Assembly: GCA_905233975.1 (NCBI GenBank)
Contig: CAJOGD010000006.1
Coordinates: forward strand, 19,609-83,608
Length of the DNA stretch: 64,000 bases
Reading direction: 5' to 3'
From: an uncultured Alphaproteobacteria bacterium
GTDB lineage: Bacteria; Pseudomonadota; Alphaproteobacteria; Rs-D84
Part shown: positions 3,663 through 60,827 of the stretch, one piece after another
Position numbering within the stretch: the stretch's first letter is position 1
How the letters are laid out: every line of letters begins with the position of its first letter
Made by a program: the position numbers and the translations under genes
The notes under the pieces: model-generated
The model's database searches: none
What the model saw: only the letters and a program-made list of their open reading frames with translations
What the model was told of the DNA's origin: nothing

Positions 3663-4826
3663 TTATTGATTCTGGGGGATATAGACGTTGGTGCTGACCT
3701 CTGGGCCGGCGGCAAAGTTTGTGTTGGCCGGAACACTGGGGAAGAAGCGCCGCGACACCGTATCATACATACCGACCTTGTTATCACTGTTTTGACGCGC
3801 GGGAAACCCGTTAAACACGAACGTCCCCGATGCATCTTTTATCCATATACGATACACCTTTGCAGAAATTTTTTGTCCGGCCACCCCCTCTATATTATTC
3901 GCAAATAAAAACATTCTTAATGTATTATCAGAAACTCTGGTTTGCGTAAAATTTTGTATGGTTCCATCAAAATCTATTGTAATATTATTTTCATTGTCAA
4001 TCGTTGTATGTATTGTATGTCTGGCGGTGGGATTTGTAAGGCTTATAGAACTATACGATGTTGAAGTTGAATTATACAACCTTAGAGCCCCGCCGGCGAA
4101 ATAGTATGTTTGCCGTAAATTATAGCTATTCGCATTTGATTGACACCCCATCAACGTCACATTACCCGCGTCGGTAGTTTTTTGGAAATCTATAAATACC
4201 TCACTTGCCAATTGGTCTAACACAACACCTGTATCAATATATTGATGCCCGTCGGATTCAATCCATTTTAATTCTGTATATCCGTCTGGCAAAGAATGTC
4301 CCGCTGCACCATTGTGGATTTCCCATAGCCAACAAGTACCGGTGACTGGTTGCCGGTTGTCGGAACATACGAATTCTCGGTCAAGACCATTTTTGAGTGC
4401 GGCGTTAAATGTTTTTGCGTCAATCAGGTTGTCGGATTGGTCGGCGTATGTGCCGGTTGTTTGATAAATTCCCTTTCGTCCGATTTGCCCGGCCGTTCCG
4501 GTGTAGGTGACGGCGGTGTGATCGTTAACCGCGGCGATGTCGTCCTGTTTTTGGTTTAACTTTGTATTCACACCACCAACCATGGGCAGCGATTCGGTAC
4601 CTCCGTTATCCAGGTCCGATGTGACGGCGCGTTTTTGAACATCGCCGGCCGCGTTGGTGTATTCCATGGCCTTGTTATTATCCGCGCCGAATTTATTCTG
4701 ACGCGTATCCAATTCATGTTCGACGTATTTCAACGACGTTGCGGTTTTCCGATCCGCCACTTCTTCCGCCACCGCCGGCAACGCCGCCGCAATTAACCCG
4801 AATAACAAAAACTTTTTCAATTGCAT
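3663..4826 (-). CDS. Secreted modular fibre/adhesin-like protein, paralog A (constant N-terminus + domain X + YIPQNQ)
   Basis: Signal peptide; about 170 aa near-identical to 50846..52351 and 59859..60827; 'LPDGYTELKWIESDGHQYIDTG...GMYDTV' domain. Confidence 0.8.
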   Translation of the reverse strand: MQLKKFLLFGLIAAALPAVAEEVADRKTATSLKYVEHELDTRQNKFGADNNKAMEYTNAAGDVQKRAVTSDLDNGGTESLPMVGGVNTKLNQKQDDIAAVNDHTAVTYTGTAGQIGRKGIYQTTGTYADQSDNLIDAKTFNAALKNGLDREFVCSDNRQPVTGTCWLWEIHNGAAGHSLPDGYTELKWIESDGHQYIDTGVVLDQLASEVFIDFQKTTDAGNVTLMGCQSNANSYNLRQTYYFAGGALRLYNSTSTSYSSISLTNPTARHTIHTTIDNENNITIDFDGTIQNFTQTRVSDNTLRMFLFANNIEGVAGQKISAKVYRIWIKDASGTFVFNGFPARQNSDNKVGMYDTVSRRFFPSVPANTNFAAGPEVSTNVYIPQNQ

Positions 4827-4861
4827 TTGACTCTCCTTGTTCCTTTCACTGGCCGCTAACA

Positions 4862-5050
4862 AAAACACCACCGAAAACGTGTGGTTGGAGGTTCAAGACA
4901 ATTTAAGGAAATTGTGTGCTTATTTTGACAGGCCCATTGGACCCACATTATTCGCATCCCTCCAACCAATTTTGGTTGGAGTTTTTGTCGATAACATGAC
5001 TCGACATCCTTAAACGGGTCTTGACACCCCATCGGCAGAATTCCCACCGA
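4862..5050 (-). ncRNA. Putative structured leader RNA, copy upstream of paralog A
   Basis: Minus strand GTGGGAA...GGGG; pairings tcaagac/gtcttga and tttaagga/tccttaaa; internal hairpins tgtcga/tcgaca and ctccaaccaa/ttggttggag. Confidence 0.55.
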
Positions 5051-5057
5051 CAAATCT

Positions 5058-5087
5058 ATTCTAACAAAAAACGAAAAGGTAAATCAA
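5058..5087 (-). promoter_or_regulatory. Sigma70 promoter with extended -10
   Basis: TTGATT-18 nt-TAGAAT with TG at the extended position. Confidence 0.6.
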
Positions 5088-5641: not shown

Positions 5642-6868
5642 CTATATCAATGTGCCGTTTTCCGCAACCATTTGCGCAATCGGCGCAATGTATTTTAATT
5701 CCGCGTCACTGTGCAGCGATATTTTGTCGATTACGCCACGCCGCGCAAGGATTTGCAATCCGCGGTCGCAAAGCGGTCTGATAAATTCGTGCAACAGTCG
5801 GCCATACGTCGCACCCAGTATGCGCAGCATGTCTGCGTTCCGCGCAAGTATTTCCGTCGCCGTCATTTCTTTGTCCGAAAGCGTGCCGATTCTGTCCGCA
5901 AGCATTGTGTGGCGGATGCGTTCGCGCAGGTCTTTTAGAATTATTTGCGACACATCAAAATTTGCACCCGTTGCAAGTGGCGTAAGGCCGGTACTGCCCA
6001 CCGCTTTGGGGATTATCGCACCGGGGGTAAGGTTTATGTTGCCAAGGTTTATGACGCCGTCATCGTCGGCCTGCCATATGCCACTGACCGCGATGGTTGC
6101 GTTTTTTAGGACAAGTTCGACGACCTTGTTCGCGGTTTTGATATCAGGTAGCGCCCGCAGCACCGGGCCGCGGCCGTACTGTTCGCCGCTTGCCAATGCC
6201 CAACGAAAGATGATGTATGGGTTCGTTTCGAATGTGCCACGTGACACGATATTATTTTCCAAATCGCCACCAACATCTATCCATGCGGTAAATTCCGTAT
6301 CGACCAATGCCTGAACCAGGCGCAATTGGTATTCCGGATTTTGCTTTATCGCGTCAAGGATTGCGCGTGGCGGCGTCCATTCGGGATAACGACGCGCAAT
6401 ATCTTGGGCACAAAGCGTTGCCGTATGAAAGACCGCGTTCGGCAAAATTGCAATATCTGACATTGGGATTGCGGTAAATGTAAATGCACTTGCCGCGCCA
6501 ATCGGCGATTCAGACATAAACAGACATGCCGTTCCCATCGTCACAAGATCCATATAGCATTGATGAATCGTCGTATAAAAATTCGATTCGTTCAGGTTTG
6601 AACGCAGTGCCATTGTCGCCGCAACCGCGTCCGGTGATTCATTTGATTCCGGCACAAGGTTCAGCCACAATGATTCCGGCGGTGTGAGTAATGAATACAT
6701 GCATGCCGCCAAATTATCCGCCGCGTCCGCCGCCGTTCCATCGAACAATGTTGCGATTTCTTCGTCGGTCGTTGGCATTGTATAGCGGCGCGCATCGGAC
6801 CAACGCTTTATCCATGGTTCGCGCAAGGCCAGCGCACGTGAATACATTTTTTGTAAGTCATATTTCAT
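5642..6868 (-). CDS. Phage portal (head-tail connector), T7/BPP-1-like
   Basis: 'LFDGTA', 'RW...GEQYGRGP...ALPDIKTAN', 'MTATEI..R' motifs. Confidence 0.9.
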   Translation of the reverse strand: MKYDLQKMYSRALALREPWIKRWSDARRYTMPTTDEEIATLFDGTAADAADNLAACMYSLLTPPESLWLNLVPESNESPDAVAATMALRSNLNESNFYTTIHQCYMDLVTMGTACLFMSESPIGAASAFTFTAIPMSDIAILPNAVFHTATLCAQDIARRYPEWTPPRAILDAIKQNPEYQLRLVQALVDTEFTAWIDVGGDLENNIVSRGTFETNPYIIFRWALASGEQYGRGPVLRALPDIKTANKVVELVLKNATIAVSGIWQADDDGVINLGNINLTPGAIIPKAVGSTGLTPLATGANFDVSQIILKDLRERIRHTMLADRIGTLSDKEMTATEILARNADMLRILGATYGRLLHEFIRPLCDRGLQILARRGVIDKISLHSDAELKYIAPIAQMVAENGTLI

Positions 6869-6883
6869 TTCTTTTCCTTTTGG

Positions 6884-7732
6884 TTAGAGTTTAAATTCTG
6901 TGTTCGCAATAAATTGGCGAACGTTTGTTCCAATTGGACGCATCGGCACAGATTGGCATAAAATTGCCCCGGCGACCGCGTCCAGCCCATCGTCATGTTC
7001 GCCGCCACCGTTCGGTGTCCATGCCAACATTTCTGAGATAAAAGGTGTTTGTGTTATGCGTCGATGCGCATAAAGGCGACCGGTCGTAAGCAACGGTTCA
7101 ATCGCGTCCAAAATTCTATCTTCTTTGCGGCGACTGTTGGTTATAGGGCGAATTTGTATTTCATAGCCCGCGTGCGCAATTGTGTCGCGCATTATTTCCG
7201 GCAACGCCGCACCGATTCCGTTTGTTTCCACGCAAAGCGTCCTTTGCCGGTGCATGCGCACAAACGAAAGCACATGTTCACACTGATATGCCAACGGGTA
7301 TTCTATGCCGTCCGGCACGACAAGATATGTTATATCGTGGATAAACACGCGGTGGCCACGATCGTCACGATAGGCAATAACGCAAACACTGTTGTCTGAA
7401 TTGCGTCGGCCGCCCGATGGGTCCCAATAAATTATTGCGCCTGTTATCGGGGTTTCGCCGATTCTGCATCCATGCGGGTCAAAATCATCGTCATAGAATT
7501 TGATTCCGCCTGGATCAAGACGGATTTTATCGGGCGCAACGAATTGCAACATCATTTGCGCCGAAAAATGTCTATCGCCGACAGTTTCCCTTATTTTTTC
7601 TATCCTTTCTATTGGAAAAACGGCCGGCCACGCGGAATTTCCGTCCACATCAACGATCGGTATTTTTAATTCCGAATAGCCCGATAAAAAAGGCGTTGAA
7701 AAAACATTTTTTTCGTATACTATGTTTGACAT
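6884..7732 (-). CDS. Terminase large subunit, C-terminal nuclease half
   Basis: 'AWP..F', 'FSAQMM', 'YWDPS', 'VETNG.G', 'KEDRI', 'HDDGLDAVAGA'; GGAG RBS about 9 nt upstream. Confidence 0.85.
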   Translation of the reverse strand: MSNIVYEKNVFSTPFLSGYSELKIPIVDVDGNSAWPAVFPIERIEKIRETVGDRHFSAQMMLQFVAPDKIRLDPGGIKFYDDDFDPHGCRIGETPITGAIIYWDPSGGRRNSDNSVCVIAYRDDRGHRVFIHDITYLVVPDGIEYPLAYQCEHVLSFVRMHRQRTLCVETNGIGAALPEIMRDTIAHAGYEIQIRPITNSRRKEDRILDAIEPLLTTGRLYAHRRITQTPFISEMLAWTPNGGGEHDDGLDAVAGAILCQSVPMRPIGTNVRQFIANTEFKL

Positions 7733-9272
7733 GGACTTTACTCCCAAAACTTTACCAACGAATTTAGAGGCCGAACAGGCCGTATTGGCCGCGGTATTGA
7801 TGAAAAACCGGGCACTTGAAAAAATTTCTGAATTCTTGCGGCCCGAAGATTTTTCACACCCCGCGCACCAAGAAATTTATAAACTTGCCCTACGCCAGTT
7901 CGCGGCCGGGATTCCGTTTGATATAATCACCGCGAAAACATACCTTGACCAACAGGGAACTTTAGAATCGGTCGGTGGTGTAGAATACCTTAGTCAGTTG
8001 GCAAGTGCCGGCGCAACCGTTGTAAATGTTGAACAGTATGGCCGTATCGTACATGAAAACGCCGTTCGACGTGAATTGATTGACTTTGGCCAATCAATTA
8101 CAGATGCCGCATTTGTTGAAGACCTTGATAATCCGGTGTCCGCACAAATTGAAGCGGCGGAACAAAAACTTTTCAACCTTGCCATGACCGGGGACACAAC
8201 GCGCGATGTTGTCCCGATTGCGAACGCGTTAAAAGATGCATTGGCCGAGGCAGAGATCGCATACAAGGCCGACGGAAAACTTTCCGGGCTTACCACCGGG
8301 CTTACCGATTTAGATCGCGCAATAAGTGGCATGCACAAATCTAATTTACTAATTATTGCCGGACGCCCGGGTATGGGAAAAACCGCACTTGCCATGAACA
8401 TCGCGTTCAATGCGGCAAATGCAATTTATTCTGGGCGCGCGAACGAACAGTATAAGGGTGCCGTTGCATTTTTCAGTTTGGAAATGGGCGCGTCTGAATT
8501 GGCCGCACGTGTTTTATCGTCCCAATCCAGAATTTCCGCATCGGCAATGCGCGAAGGGTCGCTTACCGATGAAGATTTCCTTAAAATGGCCCAGTTTTCC
8601 GACGCAATCGGACGAATCCCGTTGTTTATTGATGATACGCCGGGCATGTCTTTGCCAATGATTCGCACGCGTGTGCGGCGTCTTGCGCGAAAATATAATG
8701 GCATCGCGTTAATCGTTATCGACTATTTACAATTGTTGACATCGCCGGGCGGCAAAAACAAAGATAATCGTGTTCAGGAATTATCCGAAATTACACGCGG
8801 CCTTAAAATGATGGCCAAGGAATTCAATGTCCCGGTTATCGCACTATCGCAATTATCGCGCAGTGTTGAAAGTCGCGATGACAAGCGTCCACAACTTGCG
8901 GATTTACGTGAATCGGGGTCTATTGAACAAGATGCCGACATTGTTATGTTCACTTATCGTGAAGAATATTATTTGCAAAATCGCGATCCGTCGCGGCGGC
9001 TTTCTAATACCCCGAATGAAAAGTCTGTTGATTCGTGGCAAAATCGTCTTGAAAAGGCCAAAGGCAAGGCAGACATTATCATCGGCAAGAATCGTCATGG
9101 TCGAACAGATACAATTAACGTCGCCTTTTTGGCAGAGTATAGTTTATTCGACAACCTTAATGAAATGGCCAACCGCGTTCCAGAATTTGCACCGGACACG
9201 CCGGCCCAATCTGAACCCGGGGATATACCAACACCAATTGATATTGATGCAATCCCAGATGATTTTGAATAA
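7731..9272 (+). CDS. dnaB: Replicative DNA helicase DnaB
   Basis: EAEQAVL, Walker A GRPGMGKT, FSLEM, IDYLQL, LSQLSR, DLRESGSIEQDAD. Confidence 0.95.
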   Translation: MDFTPKTLPTNLEAEQAVLAAVLMKNRALEKISEFLRPEDFSHPAHQEIYKLALRQFAAGIPFDIITAKTYLDQQGTLESVGGVEYLSQLASAGATVVNVEQYGRIVHENAVRRELIDFGQSITDAAFVEDLDNPVSAQIEAAEQKLFNLAMTGDTTRDVVPIANALKDALAEAEIAYKADGKLSGLTTGLTDLDRAISGMHKSNLLIIAGRPGMGKTALAMNIAFNAANAIYSGRANEQYKGAVAFFSLEMGASELAARVLSSQSRISASAMREGSLTDEDFLKMAQFSDAIGRIPLFIDDTPGMSLPMIRTRVRRLARKYNGIALIVIDYLQLLTSPGGKNKDNRVQELSEITRGLKMMAKEFNVPVIALSQLSRSVESRDDKRPQLADLRESGSIEQDADIVMFTYREEYYLQNRDPSRRLSNTPNEKSVDSWQNRLEKAKGKADIIIGKNRHGRTDTINVAFLAEYSLFDNLNEMANRVPEFAPDTPAQSEPGDIPTPIDIDAIPDDFE

Positions 9273-50502: not shown

Positions 50503-50596
50503 TGGCGGATGGTGAGGGATTTGAACCCCCGAAGGTCTTATTTCATACCTTGTCCGATTTCAAGTCGGATGCATTCAACCGCTCTGCCAACCATCC
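50503..50596 (-). tRNA. tRNA-Ser(TGA)
   Basis: ggatggttggcagagcgg...tccgacTTGAaatcgga, long variable arm, GGTTCAAATCC, 3' GCCA. Confidence 0.92.
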
Positions 50597-50845: not shown

Positions 50846-52351
50846 TTATTGATTCTGGGGGATATAGATTATATTGTTAATATCCGGCCCGGCGGTAAGA
50901 GCCGATTCTGATAAAAATGTATTATTAACCGAGTCATATAGACCAATAGAATTATCAGAATTCTTCCTTGCCGGTATATAATTTCGAACTAACACATCGT
51001 TATCATATACTTTCATCTCATAGAAATTACCGCTAAACCTAGGGGTACCTGTTGAGCCGTTGCTATTACCGATCGTCAACGTCCTTGAACAAGTGAATGT
51101 TCCCACATTTGTGTATGGTACCAAATTTCCATTAAAGTTAAATCCATGTTTATCCTGTACCAATTCGTTGATCACATTGGGAACTATCCCTGTTCCAGTC
51201 ACTGTAACATTACCAAATCGTTCGTTCCCTGTTGCTATAAGATAGCAAGTTATTCGTGGATTTGAAGTGCCGGTTCCATAAACCCAAGAGCCGTTCGTCG
51301 TTCCCATAAATTTTGAAACAATTTTTGTGTCCTGATTTGGGGTAAAACCTGTATCTAATTCTTGGGCCCCATTAAAAGTTATATACTCCACCGGTGTGTA
51401 GTCAGATGGGACAAGGGTGGTGTATGGGGCTTCCTGATATGCCGTTGCGGTCGAACCTTTTTCTATTTGAATTGTGTTTAAGGTACTGTTAAATATTGCA
51501 CTATTGGTTTGAACAACGATCCATTTTGCTGTCGCCGGTGTTGTAAATGTATATGTGCCGGGATTCGTTGTTTCACGATGTATAAAGCTGTATGGTATGT
51601 TGGTTTGGTCGGTGGTGGTTGGTAATGTGGGGGTATCTATTGTTGCAAACCTGTATATGCTGCCACCATCGGTAAAACCGGAAACGGTGTATGTCGTGTT
51701 CGGCTCGCATGGGCACGCCAAAGATTTTGAGCCATTTGCATAATACCAATATCCGTCCATAGTTGCGGCAAGGCTTCTGTTTCTAAATATCCAAGAATTA
51801 TTTGTTTTATCGAATAAATTGCGACTTTCACCATTATTATGTATTGAGTAGACCCAGCAAAGATCTGTGCCGGGTTTGTATTCTGAACAAAGGAATTCGC
51901 TATCAAGTCCTTTCTTTAATGCGGCGTTGAATGTTTTTGCGTCGATAAGGTTGTTGCTTTGTTCAATGTACGTGCCGGTGTCTTGGTAAATACCCTTGGC
52001 GCCGATTTTCCCGGTCGTGCCAGTGTAGGTGACGGCGGTATGGTCGTTGATTGGGGCGATGTCATCCTGTTTTGTGGCAAGTTTAGTATTCACACCACCA
52101 ACCATGGGAAGTGACGTGTCGGACGTGCTGGACCCCAGGTTCGATGTGACGGCACGTTTTTGCACCGTTCCGGCCGAATCGGTATATTCCATGGCTTTGT
52201 TTTGTTCCGCTGTAAATTTATCCTGACGCGTGTCAAGTTCGTGCGTCACGTATTTCAATGATGTCGCGGTTTTCCGGTCCGCGGCTTCCTCCGCCACCGC
52301 CGGCAGCACCGCCGCCATCAACCCGAACAACAAAAACTTTTTCAACTGCAT
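50846..52351 (-). CDS. Secreted modular fibre/adhesin-like protein, paralog B (constant + domain Y + domain X + YIPQNQ)
   Basis: Same N-terminus as paralogs A and C; 'NLFDK...QIEKGSTATAY' then 'DYTPVEYITFNGAQELDTG...GLYDSV'. Confidence 0.85.
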   Translation of the reverse strand: MQLKKFLLFGLMAAVLPAVAEEAADRKTATSLKYVTHELDTRQDKFTAEQNKAMEYTDSAGTVQKRAVTSNLGSSTSDTSLPMVGGVNTKLATKQDDIAPINDHTAVTYTGTTGKIGAKGIYQDTGTYIEQSNNLIDAKTFNAALKKGLDSEFLCSEYKPGTDLCWVYSIHNNGESRNLFDKTNNSWIFRNRSLAATMDGYWYYANGSKSLACPCEPNTTYTVSGFTDGGSIYRFATIDTPTLPTTTDQTNIPYSFIHRETTNPGTYTFTTPATAKWIVVQTNSAIFNSTLNTIQIEKGSTATAYQEAPYTTLVPSDYTPVEYITFNGAQELDTGFTPNQDTKIVSKFMGTTNGSWVYGTGTSNPRITCYLIATGNERFGNVTVTGTGIVPNVINELVQDKHGFNFNGNLVPYTNVGTFTCSRTLTIGNSNGSTGTPRFSGNFYEMKVYDNDVLVRNYIPARKNSDNSIGLYDSVNNTFLSESALTAGPDINNIIYIPQNQ

Positions 52352-52475
52352 GTTATACTCTCCTTTCGCTTTTTACCACTACCCCGCCACTCCTCGTGGT
52401 CCTCCCCTTCGGTTATCACCCACAAAATTTTTCAAATTTTGCGGGACCCGATTGTGCGAAGGGGAATAAAAACTA

Positions 52476-52690
52476 CCGCGGTGAAAACCAAGCGGCCGGG
52501 GTGTTAGCAAATCATAACAGCGTTGATCCCAATGGCTTTCGGCGAACCTATTGTATTACCATCGGCACCCCGAACCATATCGTTCGGGGGGATTTAACGA
52601 TGCAAAAGCAAGGAAATCACAATGGATAACGATGCTATGCACCGGCTGTTATGGGCCTGCTAGAGCCCCGAACCAAGTTCCCACTTAGTT
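52476..52690 (-). ncRNA. Putative structured leader RNA, copy upstream of paralog B
   Basis: agtgggaacttggttcgggg...tagca/tgcta, cataacagc/gctgttatg...acaccccggccgcttggttttcaccgcgg; promoter TTGACG-18-TATGAT at 52699-52728. Confidence 0.7.
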
Positions 52691-52778
52691 CAATGAAAAT
52701 CATAACACAATTTATTAAAACACGTCAAGCAATAAATGTCTTTACACCGCGCGAATAAATTTTTATAATCCGATTGCT

Positions 52779-59461: not shown

Positions 59462-59464
59462 TAA

Positions 59465-59503
59465 ATAGTGTAAGTGATTAGTGTTAGTGATTAGTGTTAG
59501 TGC
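59465..59503 (+). repeat. Degenerate 6-7 nt tandem repeats (TTAGTG-based)
   Basis: tagtgtaagtgattagtgttagtgattagtgttagtg; similar runs at 3522, 5095, 5153, 9277 and 59812. Confidence 0.65.
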
Positions 59504-59587
59504 GCGGGGCTTTTGTCCCGCGTTTTTCATTTTTCAAAAAAATGTTCTTGATTAAATTCAATCAAATTTGTTAAAATAAAAACTGAA

Positions 59588-59803
59588 CTGAGTGGGAACT
59601 TGGTTCGGGGTCGTCGTAGGCCCACAGTAAAGGCGACAAAACTGTCGTATCCGCACAGTGTGTGGCGCCTTGGGCGTCTTTTATTGTGCATACCCCGACT
59701 TTGGTCGGGGTGCTGTTGGATATAAAACAGGTTTACCGAAGTCCTGCAGGATCATGCTTTACTGTGATTTACGAACACCCCGACCGCTTGGTTTCCACCG
59801 CGG
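59588..59803 (+). ncRNA. Putative structured leader RNA, copy upstream of paralog C
   Basis: agtgggaacttggttcgggg...tcgta/tacga, cacagtaaag/ctttactgtg...acaccccgaccgcttggtttccaccgcgg; promoter TTGATT-18-TAAAAT at 59548-59577. Confidence 0.7.
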
Positions 59804-59858
59804 CATTTATTTTAGTGTAAGTGTTAGTGCAAGTGGTTAGTGAAAAAAGGGGAGGAAA

Positions 59859-60827
59859 ATGTTTTTGAAAAAGTTTTTATTGTTCGGGTTGATTGCGGCA
59901 GTGTTGCCGGCGTTCGCCGAAGAAGTGGCGGACCGGAAAACGGCAACGTCGCTTAAATACGTCACACACGAATTGGATACGCGTCAGAATAAATTCGGCG
60001 CGGACACTAACAAAGCCATGGAATATACAAATTCGGCCGGAACGGTGCAAAAACGTGCGGTCACATCGGAACTGGGGTCCAGCACGTCCGACACATCACT
60101 GCCCATGGTTGGAGGTGTGAACACGAAACTTGATTTGAAACAGGACGATATTGACCCCGTAAACGACCACACCGCCGTCACATATACTGGAACGGCCGGC
60201 GGTATCGGGCGGAAAGGAATTTATCAAACAACCGGCACATACACCGATCAAAGCGACAACCTTATCGACGCAAAAACATTTAATGCCGCATTAAAGAAAG
60301 GACTTGATATTGAATTCAAGTGCAAGGAAACCAAACCCGGCACAGACCTTTGTTGGGTTTATTCGATACATAATGAAACCGAAGAAAAAACAAAAAATTT
60401 ATTAAACCCATCATTTATGGACAATTCAACATATGAAACGGTGACGGTAAACGGCGTAACGATTGATCGTGCAAAAATATTGCCAACGGAAAACGGGAAA
60501 ACATATACATTATCCGCAACATTGATTGCCAATGATGGGGGGACATATTTTTACTATCTGGCTGAGATTTTCCCAGATGGCACCTATAGCAGTCAATCCC
60601 AGCTTCCTTGCCACTACATGTGGACTAATTACACCAGCGCAAACACTAACACAACCGTTGAAAAAACATGCACATTTACCACACACGATAATGCGACATA
60701 TTTGGTGAATTTTGCTAATTCATCGTCTGTAGATTATCTAACATTAACAAATTATCAAATGGAAGAAGGTGCGACCGCAACGCCATACGTTCCGTACGGC
60801 AACGTTTATATCCCGCAAAATCAATGA
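59859..60827 (+). CDS. Secreted modular fibre/adhesin-like protein, paralog C (constant + domain Y + YIPQNQ)
   Basis: Same N-terminus; 'KNLLNP...YQMEEGATATPYVPY' then NVYIPQNQ. Confidence 0.85.
   Translation: MFLKKFLLFGLIAAVLPAFAEEVADRKTATSLKYVTHELDTRQNKFGADTNKAMEYTNSAGTVQKRAVTSELGSSTSDTSLPMVGGVNTKLDLKQDDIDPVNDHTAVTYTGTAGGIGRKGIYQTTGTYTDQSDNLIDAKTFNAALKKGLDIEFKCKETKPGTDLCWVYSIHNETEEKTKNLLNPSFMDNSTYETVTVNGVTIDRAKILPTENGKTYTLSATLIANDGGTYFYYLAEIFPDGTYSSQSQLPCHYMWTNYTSANTNTTVEKTCTFTTHDNATYLVNFANSSSVDYLTLTNYQMEEGATATPYVPYGNVYIPQNQ

Follow-up and report, generated by a model that had tools for sequence, protein, structure and literature searches.

The window, a stretch of 64,000 nt, holds three copies of a structured element, copy 1 on the forward strand and copies 2 and 3 on the reverse strand, each lying between a promoter and the gene of a secreted-protein paralog (Table 1). 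The initial annotation had placed three copies here, each behind a promoter of one form, and all were found where it put them; the promoter is present in every case, and a promoter scan called both of those that it covered, both with the TG extension. The outer helices that it described do covary, their strands reading tcgtagg/tttacga with acagtaaagg/ctttactgtg, tagcagg/tttgcta with ataacagc/gctgttat, and tcaagac/gtcttga with tttaagga/tccttaaa, and the further features were recovered as well: the internal loop with CC(C), a strong hairpin reading ccccgac/gtcgggg or a variant of it, and the common 3′ tail. The three copies form one structured family, but copy 3 belongs to a separate subtype (B), which went undetected in the window with the type-A covariance model at E ≤ 1e-5. 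All three fold far better than shuffled sequences (z = −6.65, −4.63 and −5.65; 0/200 shuffles equally stable).

No Pfam or PHROGs family matched the 322-aa paralog behind copy 1, a comparison of the paralog N-terminus with the genome contigs found no relatives, and the AlphaFold model of the 322-aa protein is poor (mean pLDDT 47). Of this model only the C-terminal β-sandwich resembles carbohydrate-binding modules, and weakly so (best E = 1.1e-4; TM 0.47 on the target), and the Atlas matches in the structure comparison were all below 0.9.

Table 1. Positions in the window of the three leader copies, their promoters and the genes behind them
Copy	Feature	Position	Strand	Detail
1	Promoter	59548–59577	+	−35 TTGATT 59548–59553; TGn-10 59569–59577; −10 TAAAAT 59572–59577; 18-nt spacer, TG extension included (from the sequence; promoter scan match with TG)
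1	RNA	about 59585–59813	+	
1	P0, 5′ hairpin	59585–59606	+	GGGA (GNRA-type) tetraloop
1	5′ strands of P1–P3	59607–59633	+	P1 (GGGG); P2 59614–59620; CCC internal loop; P3 59624–59633, the copy-specific "barcode"
1	P4 region	59634–59692	+	variable junction hairpins, including the conserved UCGUAUCC segment
1	P5 hairpin	59693–59712	+	CCCCGAC/GUCGGGG
1	P5 3′ arm plus 2 nt	59703–59712	+	alternative partner 59776–59785
1	P6 hairpin, conserved GAUCA, P3/P2 3′ strands, conserved UGAU	59713–59775	+	P3 3′ strand 59757–59766; P2 3′ strand 59768–59774
1	3′ end	59776–59813	+	P1 3′ strand within CACCCCGACC 59776–59785
1	Hairpin T, terminator-like	59784–59803	+	then U run 59806–59813
1	Downstream gene	59859–60827	+	322-aa secreted paralog
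2	Promoter	52699–52728	−	−35 TTGACG 52728–52723; 18-nt spacer; TATGAT with TG; −10 ends at 52699
2	RNA, type A	52465–52691	−	207.9 bits (covariance model)
2	P0	52691–52670	−	
2	P2/P3 5′ strands	52662–52645	−	
2	P5	52589–52568	−	
2	P6	52565–52529	−	
2	P3/P2 3′ strands	52521–52505	−	
2	CACCCCGGCC	52503–52494	−	
2	Hairpin T	52495–52476	−	U run 52472–52465
2	Downstream gene	50846–52351	−	501-aa secreted paralog
3	Promoter	5058–5087	−	−35 TTGATT 5087–5082; TGn-10 5066–5058; TAGAAT; 18-nt spacer, TG extension included
3	RNA, type B	4858–5051	−	210.5 bits to covariance model R2
3	P0	5051–5031	−	
3	P1	5030–5026	−	
3	P2/P3 5′ strands	5024–5007	−	
3	P5	4981–4960	−	
3	P3/P2 3′ strands	4909–4893	−	
3	CCUCCAACC	4891–4883	−	
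3	Hairpin T	4884–4868	−	U run 4867–4858
3	Downstream gene	3663–4826	−	387-aa secreted paralog

Copy number, promoters and gene linkage

Genome-wide, we count 59 copies in 1.04 Mb (57 from iterated nhmmer searches and two of type C), and these leader elements fill about 1.2% of the DNA. An element had been proposed to stand before every paralog of the protein family, which is true in the window and for 55 of the 56 paralogs (53 + 2) in the genome, each preceded by its copy in the same orientation; the one exception begins at the edge of a contig. A co-oriented gene follows 58/59 copies, the remaining one being an apparently inverted orphan with no gene behind it (G000:C4:248442-248647). An extended −10 promoter lies 8–18 nt before 54 of the 57 copies, as against 40 of 5000 random windows, and a relaxed form of the pattern precedes 49/76 copies from other species, as against 239/3000 random windows. 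Orientation and spacing are fixed relative to both promoter and gene.

We considered an invertible promoter in view of the inverted-looking copy, and rejected it: that copy is the orphan, and the neighbouring paralog has a type-C leader of its own. No promoter inversion was seen in the DNA contigs of four sequencing runs. These contigs break at the conserved ends of the element and show higher depth over the multicopy coding N-terminus, and they contain joints that omit 135–139 nt between 52514 and 52654, which fit other copies sharing those ends. Short tandem repeats and hairpin-rich inserts flank the copies; an association with TAGTG arrays was discarded, 50 of 79 arrays lying more than 200 nt from any leader.

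Sequence identity between copies falls to 37%, and the combination of P2 and P3 is distinct in 36/36 type-A copies. The junction and P5/P6 have different sequences in subtypes A, B and C. Some 40 nucleotides amid the variable helices, all unpaired or at the junction, are highly conserved.

Fold 1 and the terminator-like hairpin

Fold 1, the more stable of two folds described here, comprises the 5′ GNRA-type hairpin P0, the closing helix P1, a P2–P3 rod, a four-way junction with P4–P6, and hairpin T with its U run. Within the genome, compensatory changes support 30 of its 47 pairs. In an alignment of 79 sequences, 94.4% of cells are paired, compared with 70.6% after shuffling (0/500) and 34–45% with slid partners, and in 18 sequences from other families of the class the figure is 93.1% compared with 66.2%. 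These percentages are inflated by the fitting of alignments A4 and A6 to the model, and relatedness among copies of a genome and species of a genus means that the shuffle counts overstate significance. Compensatory pairs number 40/47 in the larger set and 38/47 in the more distant one, and P0 has them in 10 of 10 pairs (79 sequences). The aligned sequences are a subset, as genome searches matched hundreds more. The helices stay paired through hundreds of double changes, and the sense strand folds more stably than its complement in 130/131 sequences, a strand specificity due to numerous G-U pairs. The element is therefore a structured RNA under selection for its fold, as the initial annotation had concluded from three copies; the compensatory changes now extend from the genome to the order and to the Alphaproteobacteria, and covariation is strong in the enlarged alignments.

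These data also bear on whether the element is instead a mobile or recombination DNA repeat, either a promoter-carrying, MITE-like unit or a scaffold for cassette exchange among paralogs, with incidental RNA structure. We regard this as very improbable. The copy number is very high, copies in other assemblies often sit at contig ends, different species have unrelated genes behind them, and the flanking tandem repeats and inserts would fit such an origin. However, a repeat would not be expected to keep a fixed orientation and distance to promoter and gene, to preserve pairing through hundreds of double changes at 37% identity, or to fold in a strand-specific manner. Terminal inverted repeats and target duplications were not seen in the flanks, and searches of phage and plasmid collections found no match to the element. 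MITE-like scatter independent of the genes, named at the outset as grounds for abandoning a regulatory reading, was not seen, and the element does not qualify as a MITE.

Hairpin T resembles an intrinsic terminator to a degree that depends on the set of copies. A U run (at least five in eight) follows the hairpin in 30/32 type-A copies of this genome, and in 56/68 and 17/19 copies of two further sets, while a canonical stem and loop is found in 0/32, 32/68 and 2/19, respectively; in no type-A copy of the 32 does an unbroken stem of 5 or more pairs carry a loop of 3–8 nt. In copies 1 and 2 the bulged stems and large loops kept T from being called by a consensus terminator scan. The T-containing state is favoured in 91/94 sequences, by a median of 7.8 kcal/mol. 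Three of the 18 distant members, judged by eye, lack T and run directly into the ribosome-binding site.

Fold 2 and the relation to sRNA-Xcc1

In Fold 2, which is mutually exclusive with Fold 1, the 3′ arm of P5 re-pairs with the P1 3′ strand and the base of T, and the P0 loop region pairs with the T loop. In each of the window's three copies T and the alternative helix have 2 nt in common, and in copy 1 the T loop, UUUCCA, is the complement of the P0 loop. Covariation at these contacts was examined in two ways. The nucleotide after the P5 G-run can pair with the one before the P1 C-run in 90/98 sequences (UA 46, AU 30, GU 10, UG 3, CG 1), compared with 48.8 ± 4.9 for shuffled partners (0/5000 as high). 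The duplex between P0 apex and T loop has an energy of −5.21 for own pairs and −3.85 ± 0.16 for permuted ones (0/2000 as low); of 66 GGGA P0 loops, 54 are accompanied by a T loop containing CC, whereas of eight GAGA P0 loops none is, and seven occur with UCUC or UCUU T loops instead. The second fold, too, is under selection, and the leader has the conserved, terminator-excluding alternative pairing that characterises intrinsic-terminator attenuators. When forced, Fold 2 is 10–21 kcal/mol less stable than the minimum-energy fold, and therefore requires a stabilising factor or a kinetic route. It is also incompatible with P2/P3, long helices that are expected to form first.

Fold 2 connects the element to a catalogued RNA. 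The initial annotation had called the RNA unrecognised, and at the Rfam gathering threshold this holds, a scan of the whole window returning two tRNAs and nothing else; its 3′ half, however, matches sRNA-Xcc1 (RF02221) below the threshold of 53 bits. Scores in this genome are 25.7–34.3 bits, with 27.6 for copy 2 and, at E ≤ 1, 34.3 and 25.7 in 2 of 20 further type-A loci; a genome-wide search at E ≤ 0.01 gave no match. Three distant relatives reach 42.7, 33.3 and 33.2 bits, likewise under the gathering score. These matches span exactly the P5 3′ arm to the P1 3′ strand, so that the 3′ half aligns end to end with the 87-position model: its closing helix falls on the P5 3′ arm and P1 3′ strand, its hairpin 1 on P6, and its hairpin 2 on GAUCA...UGAU. 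The RF02221 consensus fold, a 9-bp G-rich/C-rich closing helix round two hairpins, is present in the element as an alternative rather than the most stable fold. Element and model share that G-rich/C-rich helix, two hairpins and, in the first of these, AUACAAUA and GAA; the AUACAAUA internal-loop motif of hairpin 1 is found in a subset of type-A copies (e.g. copy 2) and replaced by AUAUAU or AUAAUGC variants in others. Other weak Rfam E-value matches (L20 leader, rteR, STnc430 and others) were set aside, since they fall on flanking terminators or repeats, off the element.

Canonical sRNA-Xcc1 loci carry the same 5′ half, which is absent from the Rfam model. In 11 of 15 RF02221 copies that are canonical or near the threshold, the minimum-energy fold joins upstream sequence to 8 nt or more of hairpin 2 and the joining region next to it, and this pairing shows compensatory changes among four copies of one genome; the type-A model run over canonical RF02221 copies gave no full-length match. 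Since Fold 2 is the Rfam sRNA-Xcc1 structure, the RNA is a divergent, 5′-extended member of that wider family, a relative of RF02221 rather than something entirely new. Passages of PMC2996969 present sRNA-Xcc1 as an 88-nt sRNA that acts in trans and whose ends have been mapped, about 88–100 nt in Xanthomonas by Northern blot and end mapping, and those of PMC12189769 note transcripts in Xylella. The element studied here, in contrast, is about 215 nt long, leads a gene and includes a hairpin at its 5′ end, the 5′ half and a terminator-like end. Both are multicopy and lie upstream of genes; excerpts of 10.1101/2025.06.18.660453, 10.1101/2020.03.17.996009 and PMC12189769 place sRNA-Xcc1, in multiple copies, before accessory genes.

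Alternatively, the leader could be a precursor and not a terminator switch, cleaved by an RNase or by itself near the P5 loop to free a 3′ domain that refolds into the sRNA-Xcc1 shape. The 88-nt RNA mapped in Xanthomonas, in passages of PMC2996969, starts where the P5 3′ arm starts, as does the RF02221 model, canonical loci have a conserved complementary 5′ half, and selection bears on both folds. Rfam scans, however, detected neither a cleavage-site motif nor a known ribozyme family, and 16 bp of P2/P3 would still join the halves after cleavage, which makes processing of this kind improbable.

RF02221 also occurs in integron cassettes. An integron attC site is a single imperfect hairpin of 57–141 nt with R and L boxes and an adjacent integrase, whereas the element is a multibranched fold of ~215 nt with its own promoter.

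Downstream genes and a possible mechanism

The element is also found across the order and the Alphaproteobacteria, although searches of families f4–f6 were mostly negative. The downstream genes in other species encode mostly secreted proteins and lipoproteins, and also glycosyltransferases, DNA methylases, a chemoreceptor and an outer-membrane barrel, so the expectation that the RNA always precedes one protein family does not extend beyond this genome. In most of these copies the start codon comes 2–21 nt after the model match. The gene must therefore be transcribed through the element, as there is no room for a second promoter, and the element is the gene's 5′ UTR. The earlier proposal of a cis-regulatory RNA is consistent with this linkage in cis, whereas nothing points to the guide-like RNA offered beside it. 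By its genome size and gut habitat the organism may belong to the Rs-D84/Enterousia lineage, which passages of PMC12306168 describe; in literature listed for the lineage and for structured RNAs before signal-peptide genes we found no description of this RNA.

We give somewhat better than even credence to a bistable, cis-acting leader of the downstream mRNA that serves as a conditional transcription terminator. The extended −10 promoter would transcribe leader and gene together; Fold 1, with T and its U run, would stop RNA polymerase before the gene, and Fold 2, since it removes T, would allow read-through. An effector, whether a metabolite, a protein, an RNA or folding kinetics, would set the balance between the two. 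That T terminates, that the folds are alternative functional states and that an effector shifts them, we infer. A search of this genome for partner proteins found one NusG, no CsrA and no Hfq; Rho is present.

The same promoter and terminator-like end could instead belong to stand-alone, trans-acting small RNA genes, with downstream genes read through at a low level or only secondarily associated. We judge this unlikely, while giving it some weight: the terminated fold is the favoured one in 91/94 sequences, one orphan copy has no gene, and the related RF02221 was detected as a short RNA, according to parts of PMC2996969 and PMC12189769. However, 58/59 copies are followed by a co-oriented gene, ribosome-binding sites lie 2–21 nt past the element in most other-species copies, the terminator is missing from some of the distant members, the genome search for Hfq was negative, and few conserved loops are exposed, the variable parts being base-paired.

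Terminator/antiterminator leaders (riboswitches, T-boxes and protein-dependent attenuators) offer a close parallel to the conditional terminator that we prefer. They likewise have a promoter-proximal structured 5′ UTR with a hairpin and U run right before the ribosome-binding site, a conserved alternative pairing over the terminator base, and a platform that varies by species; here, unlike in those systems, there are three subtypes, 59 copies per 1.04 Mb and copy-specific helices, and termination is predicted from sequence. A classical metabolite or ion riboswitch, in which Fold 1 is the aptamer and a ligand decides between terminator and antiterminator, would account for the roughly 40 conserved unpaired or junction nucleotides within variable helices, the conservation across a bacterial class, the two mutually exclusive folds, and expression platforms that are terminator-like or adjacent to the ribosome-binding site depending on the species. 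The many copies per genome would fit as well, since some riboswitch classes have them too. The A/B/C differences in junction and P5/P6 are nevertheless unusual for a single ligand pocket, and the downstream genes share no metabolic theme; such a riboswitch therefore seems unlikely. Leaders recognised by specialised NusG proteins (RfaH/LoaP/UpxY) are alike in marking surface-protein and surface-polysaccharide enzyme genes with a shared leader, but this genome has one NusG-family gene, and the element is a large folded RNA rather than a short ops-like site.

Under the conditional-terminator model, the copy-specific P2/P3 "barcode" could be an address rather than neutral drift, and this we regard as a long shot. 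In the alternative fold, a small hairpin would display the P3 3′ strand as its loop, leaving the complementary strand unpaired, so that terminated leader RNAs might pair exclusively with leaders being transcribed from their own locus and shift the fold of these, a locus-specific feedback. Pairing in trans of this kind could lead to the expression of one or a few of the about 56 surface-protein variants, chosen stochastically and to the exclusion of the rest. Control over which variant is expressed, raised in the initial annotation, is compatible with the copy-specific stems, and is speculation; if true, it would be antigenic or phase variation by RNA only, with no DNA rearrangement.

An Rfam entry catalogued as a short trans-acting sRNA, sRNA-Xcc1, corresponds to the 3′ domain of a ~200-nt leader that occurs across the Alphaproteobacteria and has two mutually exclusive folds supported by covariation. 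The element is a large branch of that family that had gone unrecognised, hugely amplified here before genes for surface and secreted proteins. In an uncultured gut lineage with reduced genomes, dozens of genes per genome stand behind this one element; it appears to define a cell-surface regulon, and gives a handle on surface control in these organisms. In other assemblies, many copies lie at contig ends. Full-length relatives are found in complete genomes of 1.8–4.3 Mb, which are a place to seek tractable hosts.

Leader copies, stable fold and distribution

The initial annotation had placed three leader RNAs in the window behind a shared promoter, and both points held: all three copies were located in the sequence, and each begins a few bases past a TTGNNN-spacer-TGnTAnnnT promoter. 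A consensus promoter scan called both promoters within its coverage, each with the TG extension. Iterated nhmmer recovered 57 copies from the source assembly (1.04 Mb, 11 contigs; window at G000:C6:19609-83608), which by our own sequence rule comprise 37 of type A (including copies 1 and 2), 19 of type B (including copy 3) and one odd copy; two further copies, of subtype C, were recognised by eye and BLAST, giving a genome total of 59. The promoter pattern stands 8–18 nt ahead of 54 of the 57 copies, compared with 40 of 5000 random genome windows.

Coordinates of the leaders and associated features (window positions unless a contig is named)
Feature	Position	Strand
Leader copy 1	~59585-59813	+
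Leader copy 2	~52691-52465	-
Leader copy 3	~5051-4858	-
Paralog, 322 aa	59859-60827	
Paralog, 501 aa	50846-52351	
Paralog, 387 aa	3663-4826	
TAGTG-type array	59463-59500	
TAGTG-type array	59814-59845	
TAGTG-type array upstream of copy 3	5185-5095	
Copy 2 spacer	52352-52464	
Phage remnant	5642-9272	
tRNA, long variable arm	50506-50596	
Orphan type-A leader, outside the window	G000:C4:248442-248647 (source genome)	
Tandem RF02221 copies, locus L191	G170:C1:749745-751817	

Copies 1, 2 and 3 are far more stable than their dinucleotide shuffles (z = -6.65, -4.63 and -5.65, respectively), in agreement with their description as structured RNAs. The stable fold (Fold 1) runs from a 5' hairpin, P0, with loop GGGA in 66/100 distinct sequences and GAGA in 8/100, through a GGGG/CCCC helix (P1), the 7-bp P2, a small CC(C)/A internal loop and P3 (8–11 bp) to a junction carrying P4, P5 (a strong hairpin) and P6, and ends in a terminal hairpin (T) and a U run. 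RNAalifold returned 47 pairs for 36 type-A copies of this genome, 30 of them with double compensatory changes, and 40 pairs, 12 compensatory, for the 19 type-B copies. P3 differs in almost every copy: its 5' strand takes 34 distinct forms among the 36 type-A copies, all 36 P2+P3 combinations are distinct, and P3 averages 0.37 in pairwise identity versus 0.77–0.84 for the conserved flanks.

The covariance models R1 (type A) and R2 (type B) match widely in related genomes, with pairing kept through compensatory changes. Counting genomes with a match rather than copy numbers, as the genus and order searches capped the scoring for each genome, R1 was found in 57/60 other genomes of the genus and 102/121 of an order sample (families f1 85/91, f2 2/4, f3 14/19, f4–f6 0/6), and R2 in 80/101 of the order sample; when each family of the class was represented by a single genome, R1 matched 16/141 (14/139 outside the genus), including complete genomes of 1.8–4.3 Mb. 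The animal-gut habitat of the source genome fits a putative placement in the Rs-D84/Enterousia lineage of PMC12306168. When 79 other-species matches were aligned to R1, 94.4% of cells were paired against 70.6% after shuffling (0/500 as high) and 34–45% with slid partners, and 18 matches drawn from 15 further families in the class gave 93.1% against 66.2%; these percentages are upper bounds, because the model itself guided the alignments and the sequences are related, but the effect is very large nonetheless. Compensatory changes occur in 40/47 and 38/47 pairs, respectively.

The sense strand is more stable than the antisense strand in 130/131 sequences and many pairs are consistently G-U; the fold is therefore a property of the transcript heading into the gene. 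That the element is instead a repeat acting at the DNA level, as its many copies might suggest, is very improbable.

Genes behind the leaders

A single paralogous family of 56 ORFs in this genome has in common a signal peptide, a conserved stretch of ~170 residues at the N-terminus and the motif ...VYIPQNQ at the C-terminus; all complete members, including those of the window, end in ...(V/I/L)Y(I/V)PQ(N/G/E/D)Q. For 53 paralogs an nhmmer copy in the same orientation lies at most 600 nt upstream, and of the remaining three, two have a type-C leader and one starts at a contig edge. Four nhmmer copies stand elsewhere: one ahead of a Stealth-family capsule enzyme gene, two ahead of other signal-peptide protein genes, and one with no gene behind it, facing a convergent ORF. 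This orphan type-A copy retains its promoter, and its transcript would run antisense into the 3' end of the 515-aa ORF.

The family had no match in Pfam or PHROGs. The structure model of the 322-aa member is poor (pLDDT 47), and its Atlas neighbours are viral proteins with scores <0.9. The earlier label of adhesin is unproven, yet plausible because the variable C-terminal part is modelled as a beta-sandwich resembling carbohydrate-binding modules, the sole part with such likeness.

The element, which heads 55/56 paralogs here, also stands before unrelated genes in other species. In those species 58 copies have a callable ORF, whose start codon is in most cases 2–21 nt past the model match, and a crude rule marks 43 of the ORFs as signal-peptide or lipobox proteins, with several unflagged ones also looking secreted. 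Pfam assigned two DNA methyltransferases, one family-8 glycosyltransferase and one weak DUF1661 match among 10 chosen downstream proteins, and no family to the other six; class-level relatives precede genes for an outer-membrane beta-barrel (Opacity/Surface-antigen type), a chemoreceptor, lipoproteins and small unknown proteins. Given these varied genes, the leader is not 'adhesin'-specific and marks mainly envelope, surface and accessory genes.

An alternative fold and its relation to sRNA-Xcc1

The stable fold leaves three conserved complementarities unused. The P5 5' arm (CCCCGAC in type A, CUCCAACC in type B, UCCUGGC in type C) recurs almost unchanged across the P1 3' strand and T base (CCCCGACC, CCUCCAACC and CUCCUGGCC, respectively), and the P5 3' arm can thus pair there over 8–10 bp (Fold 2). 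A flanking pair of this helix, outside both P1 and P5, is standard in 90/98 sequences, with three Watson-Crick types (shuffles 48.8 ± 4.9, 0/5000 as high), whereas only 64/98 allow that nucleotide to pair with the P5 flank. The P0 apex also complements the T loop: GGGA occurs with UCCC/UUCC and GAGA with UCUC/UCUU, and duplex energy is -5.21 for own pairs versus -3.85 ± 0.16 for permuted ones (0/2000 as low). Finally, GAUCA is complementary to UGAU, both conserved on either side of the P3 3' strand, which their pairing could present as a hairpin loop.

The alternative helix overlaps T by 2 nt in copies 1, 2 and 3 and, when forced, gives folds without T at 10–21 kcal/mol above the minimum. With the hairpin allowed in folding, the terminated state is favoured in 91/94 sequences (median 7.8 kcal/mol). 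At least five U in eight follow the last hairpin in 30/32 type-A copies here, 56/68 in other species and 17/19 type-B copies; by strict criteria T is canonical in 0/32, 32/68 and 2/19, respectively, and a consensus terminator scan did not call T of copies 1 and 2. We lean towards a cis-acting bistable switch, in which the stable fold would by default end transcription at T ahead of the gene and a shift to the alternative fold would allow read-through. A true metabolite riboswitch would be a special case of this mechanism and seems rather unlikely; a processed precursor is more doubtful still. Among candidate partner proteins sought in the genome, one NusG and Rho were found, CsrA and Hfq were not, and none was identified as a partner.

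The element had been taken for an unrecognised RNA, distinct from known riboswitches, 6S, SRP and tmRNA. No Rfam 15 family reaches threshold on it, but sRNA-Xcc1 (RF02221) recurs, as the sole such signal, always below its 53-bit threshold: 27.6 bits in copy 2, 34.3 and 25.7 bits in 2/20 further loci, while three class-level relatives score 42.7, 33.3 and 33.2 bits. The matched region coincides exactly with the alternative fold: the RF02221 closing helix falls on the P5 3' arm and the P1 3' strand, hairpin 1 of the model on P6 and hairpin 2 on GAUCA...UGAU. RF02221 reaches threshold in 5/141 class genomes (one flagged unpublished) and has no match at E <= 0.01 in a search of this whole genome, and R1 gave no full-length match over canonical RF02221 copies. 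Of 15 canonical or near-threshold copies, 11 have a minimum-energy fold in which the preceding 150 nt are paired to hairpin 2 and the joining region beside it, and 10 have an upstream duplex z < -2. Four copies from one genome carry clear-cut compensatory changes, in P2 as well as in P3. RF02221 therefore appears to cover one part of the same two-state RNA, its 3' domain, and no more. The leader is not categorically new, since this domain is a recognisable, sub-threshold relative of RF02221.

In published descriptions, sRNA-Xcc1 is an 88-nt RNA with mapped ends (PMC2996969), lies upstream of symE in integron cassettes (10.1101/2025.06.18.660453) and of an ORF in APSE phages (10.1101/2020.03.17.996009), and forms multicopy arrays in Xylella (PMC12189769). 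Literature searches, at the level of listings and selected passages, turned up no account of the full-length RNA, of its two folds or of its expansion in this lineage. A discrete RNA of this kind would suit a stand-alone sRNA acting in trans, a reading we consider unlikely for a leader placed so regularly before genes. At locus L191, three canonical RF02221 copies recur every ~994 nt in a tandem, cassette-like arrangement, and each is preceded by a complementary half of its own.

Surroundings of the leaders

Many leaders are flanked by short tandem arrays of (T)TAGTG/TAAGTG type, either direct or inverted, which carry stop codons in several frames; the genome has 79, of which 29 are no more than 200 nt from a leader and 50 are farther away. 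Hairpin-rich inserts of 100–200 nt separate many leaders of the source genome from the ribosome-binding site, most opening with GCCGTCATTCC and closing with ATGACG. The CCGTCAT[TA]CC motif is found downstream of 28/57 leaders and at 80 sites across the genome, on both strands; the copy 2 spacer holds a different hairpin insert without it. In appearance the inserts suggest either a repeat of REP/MITE-like kind or a second UTR module. Directly upstream of copy 3 lies a phage remnant with a T7-type portal (PF12236, phrog_332), a DnaB-like helicase and a 287-aa fragment whose match to a large terminase is confined to the terminase's C-terminal part, and the paralog gene comes after the portal gene on the same strand. 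The 501-aa paralog is followed, ~250 nt downstream and also on the same strand, by a tRNA with a long variable arm.
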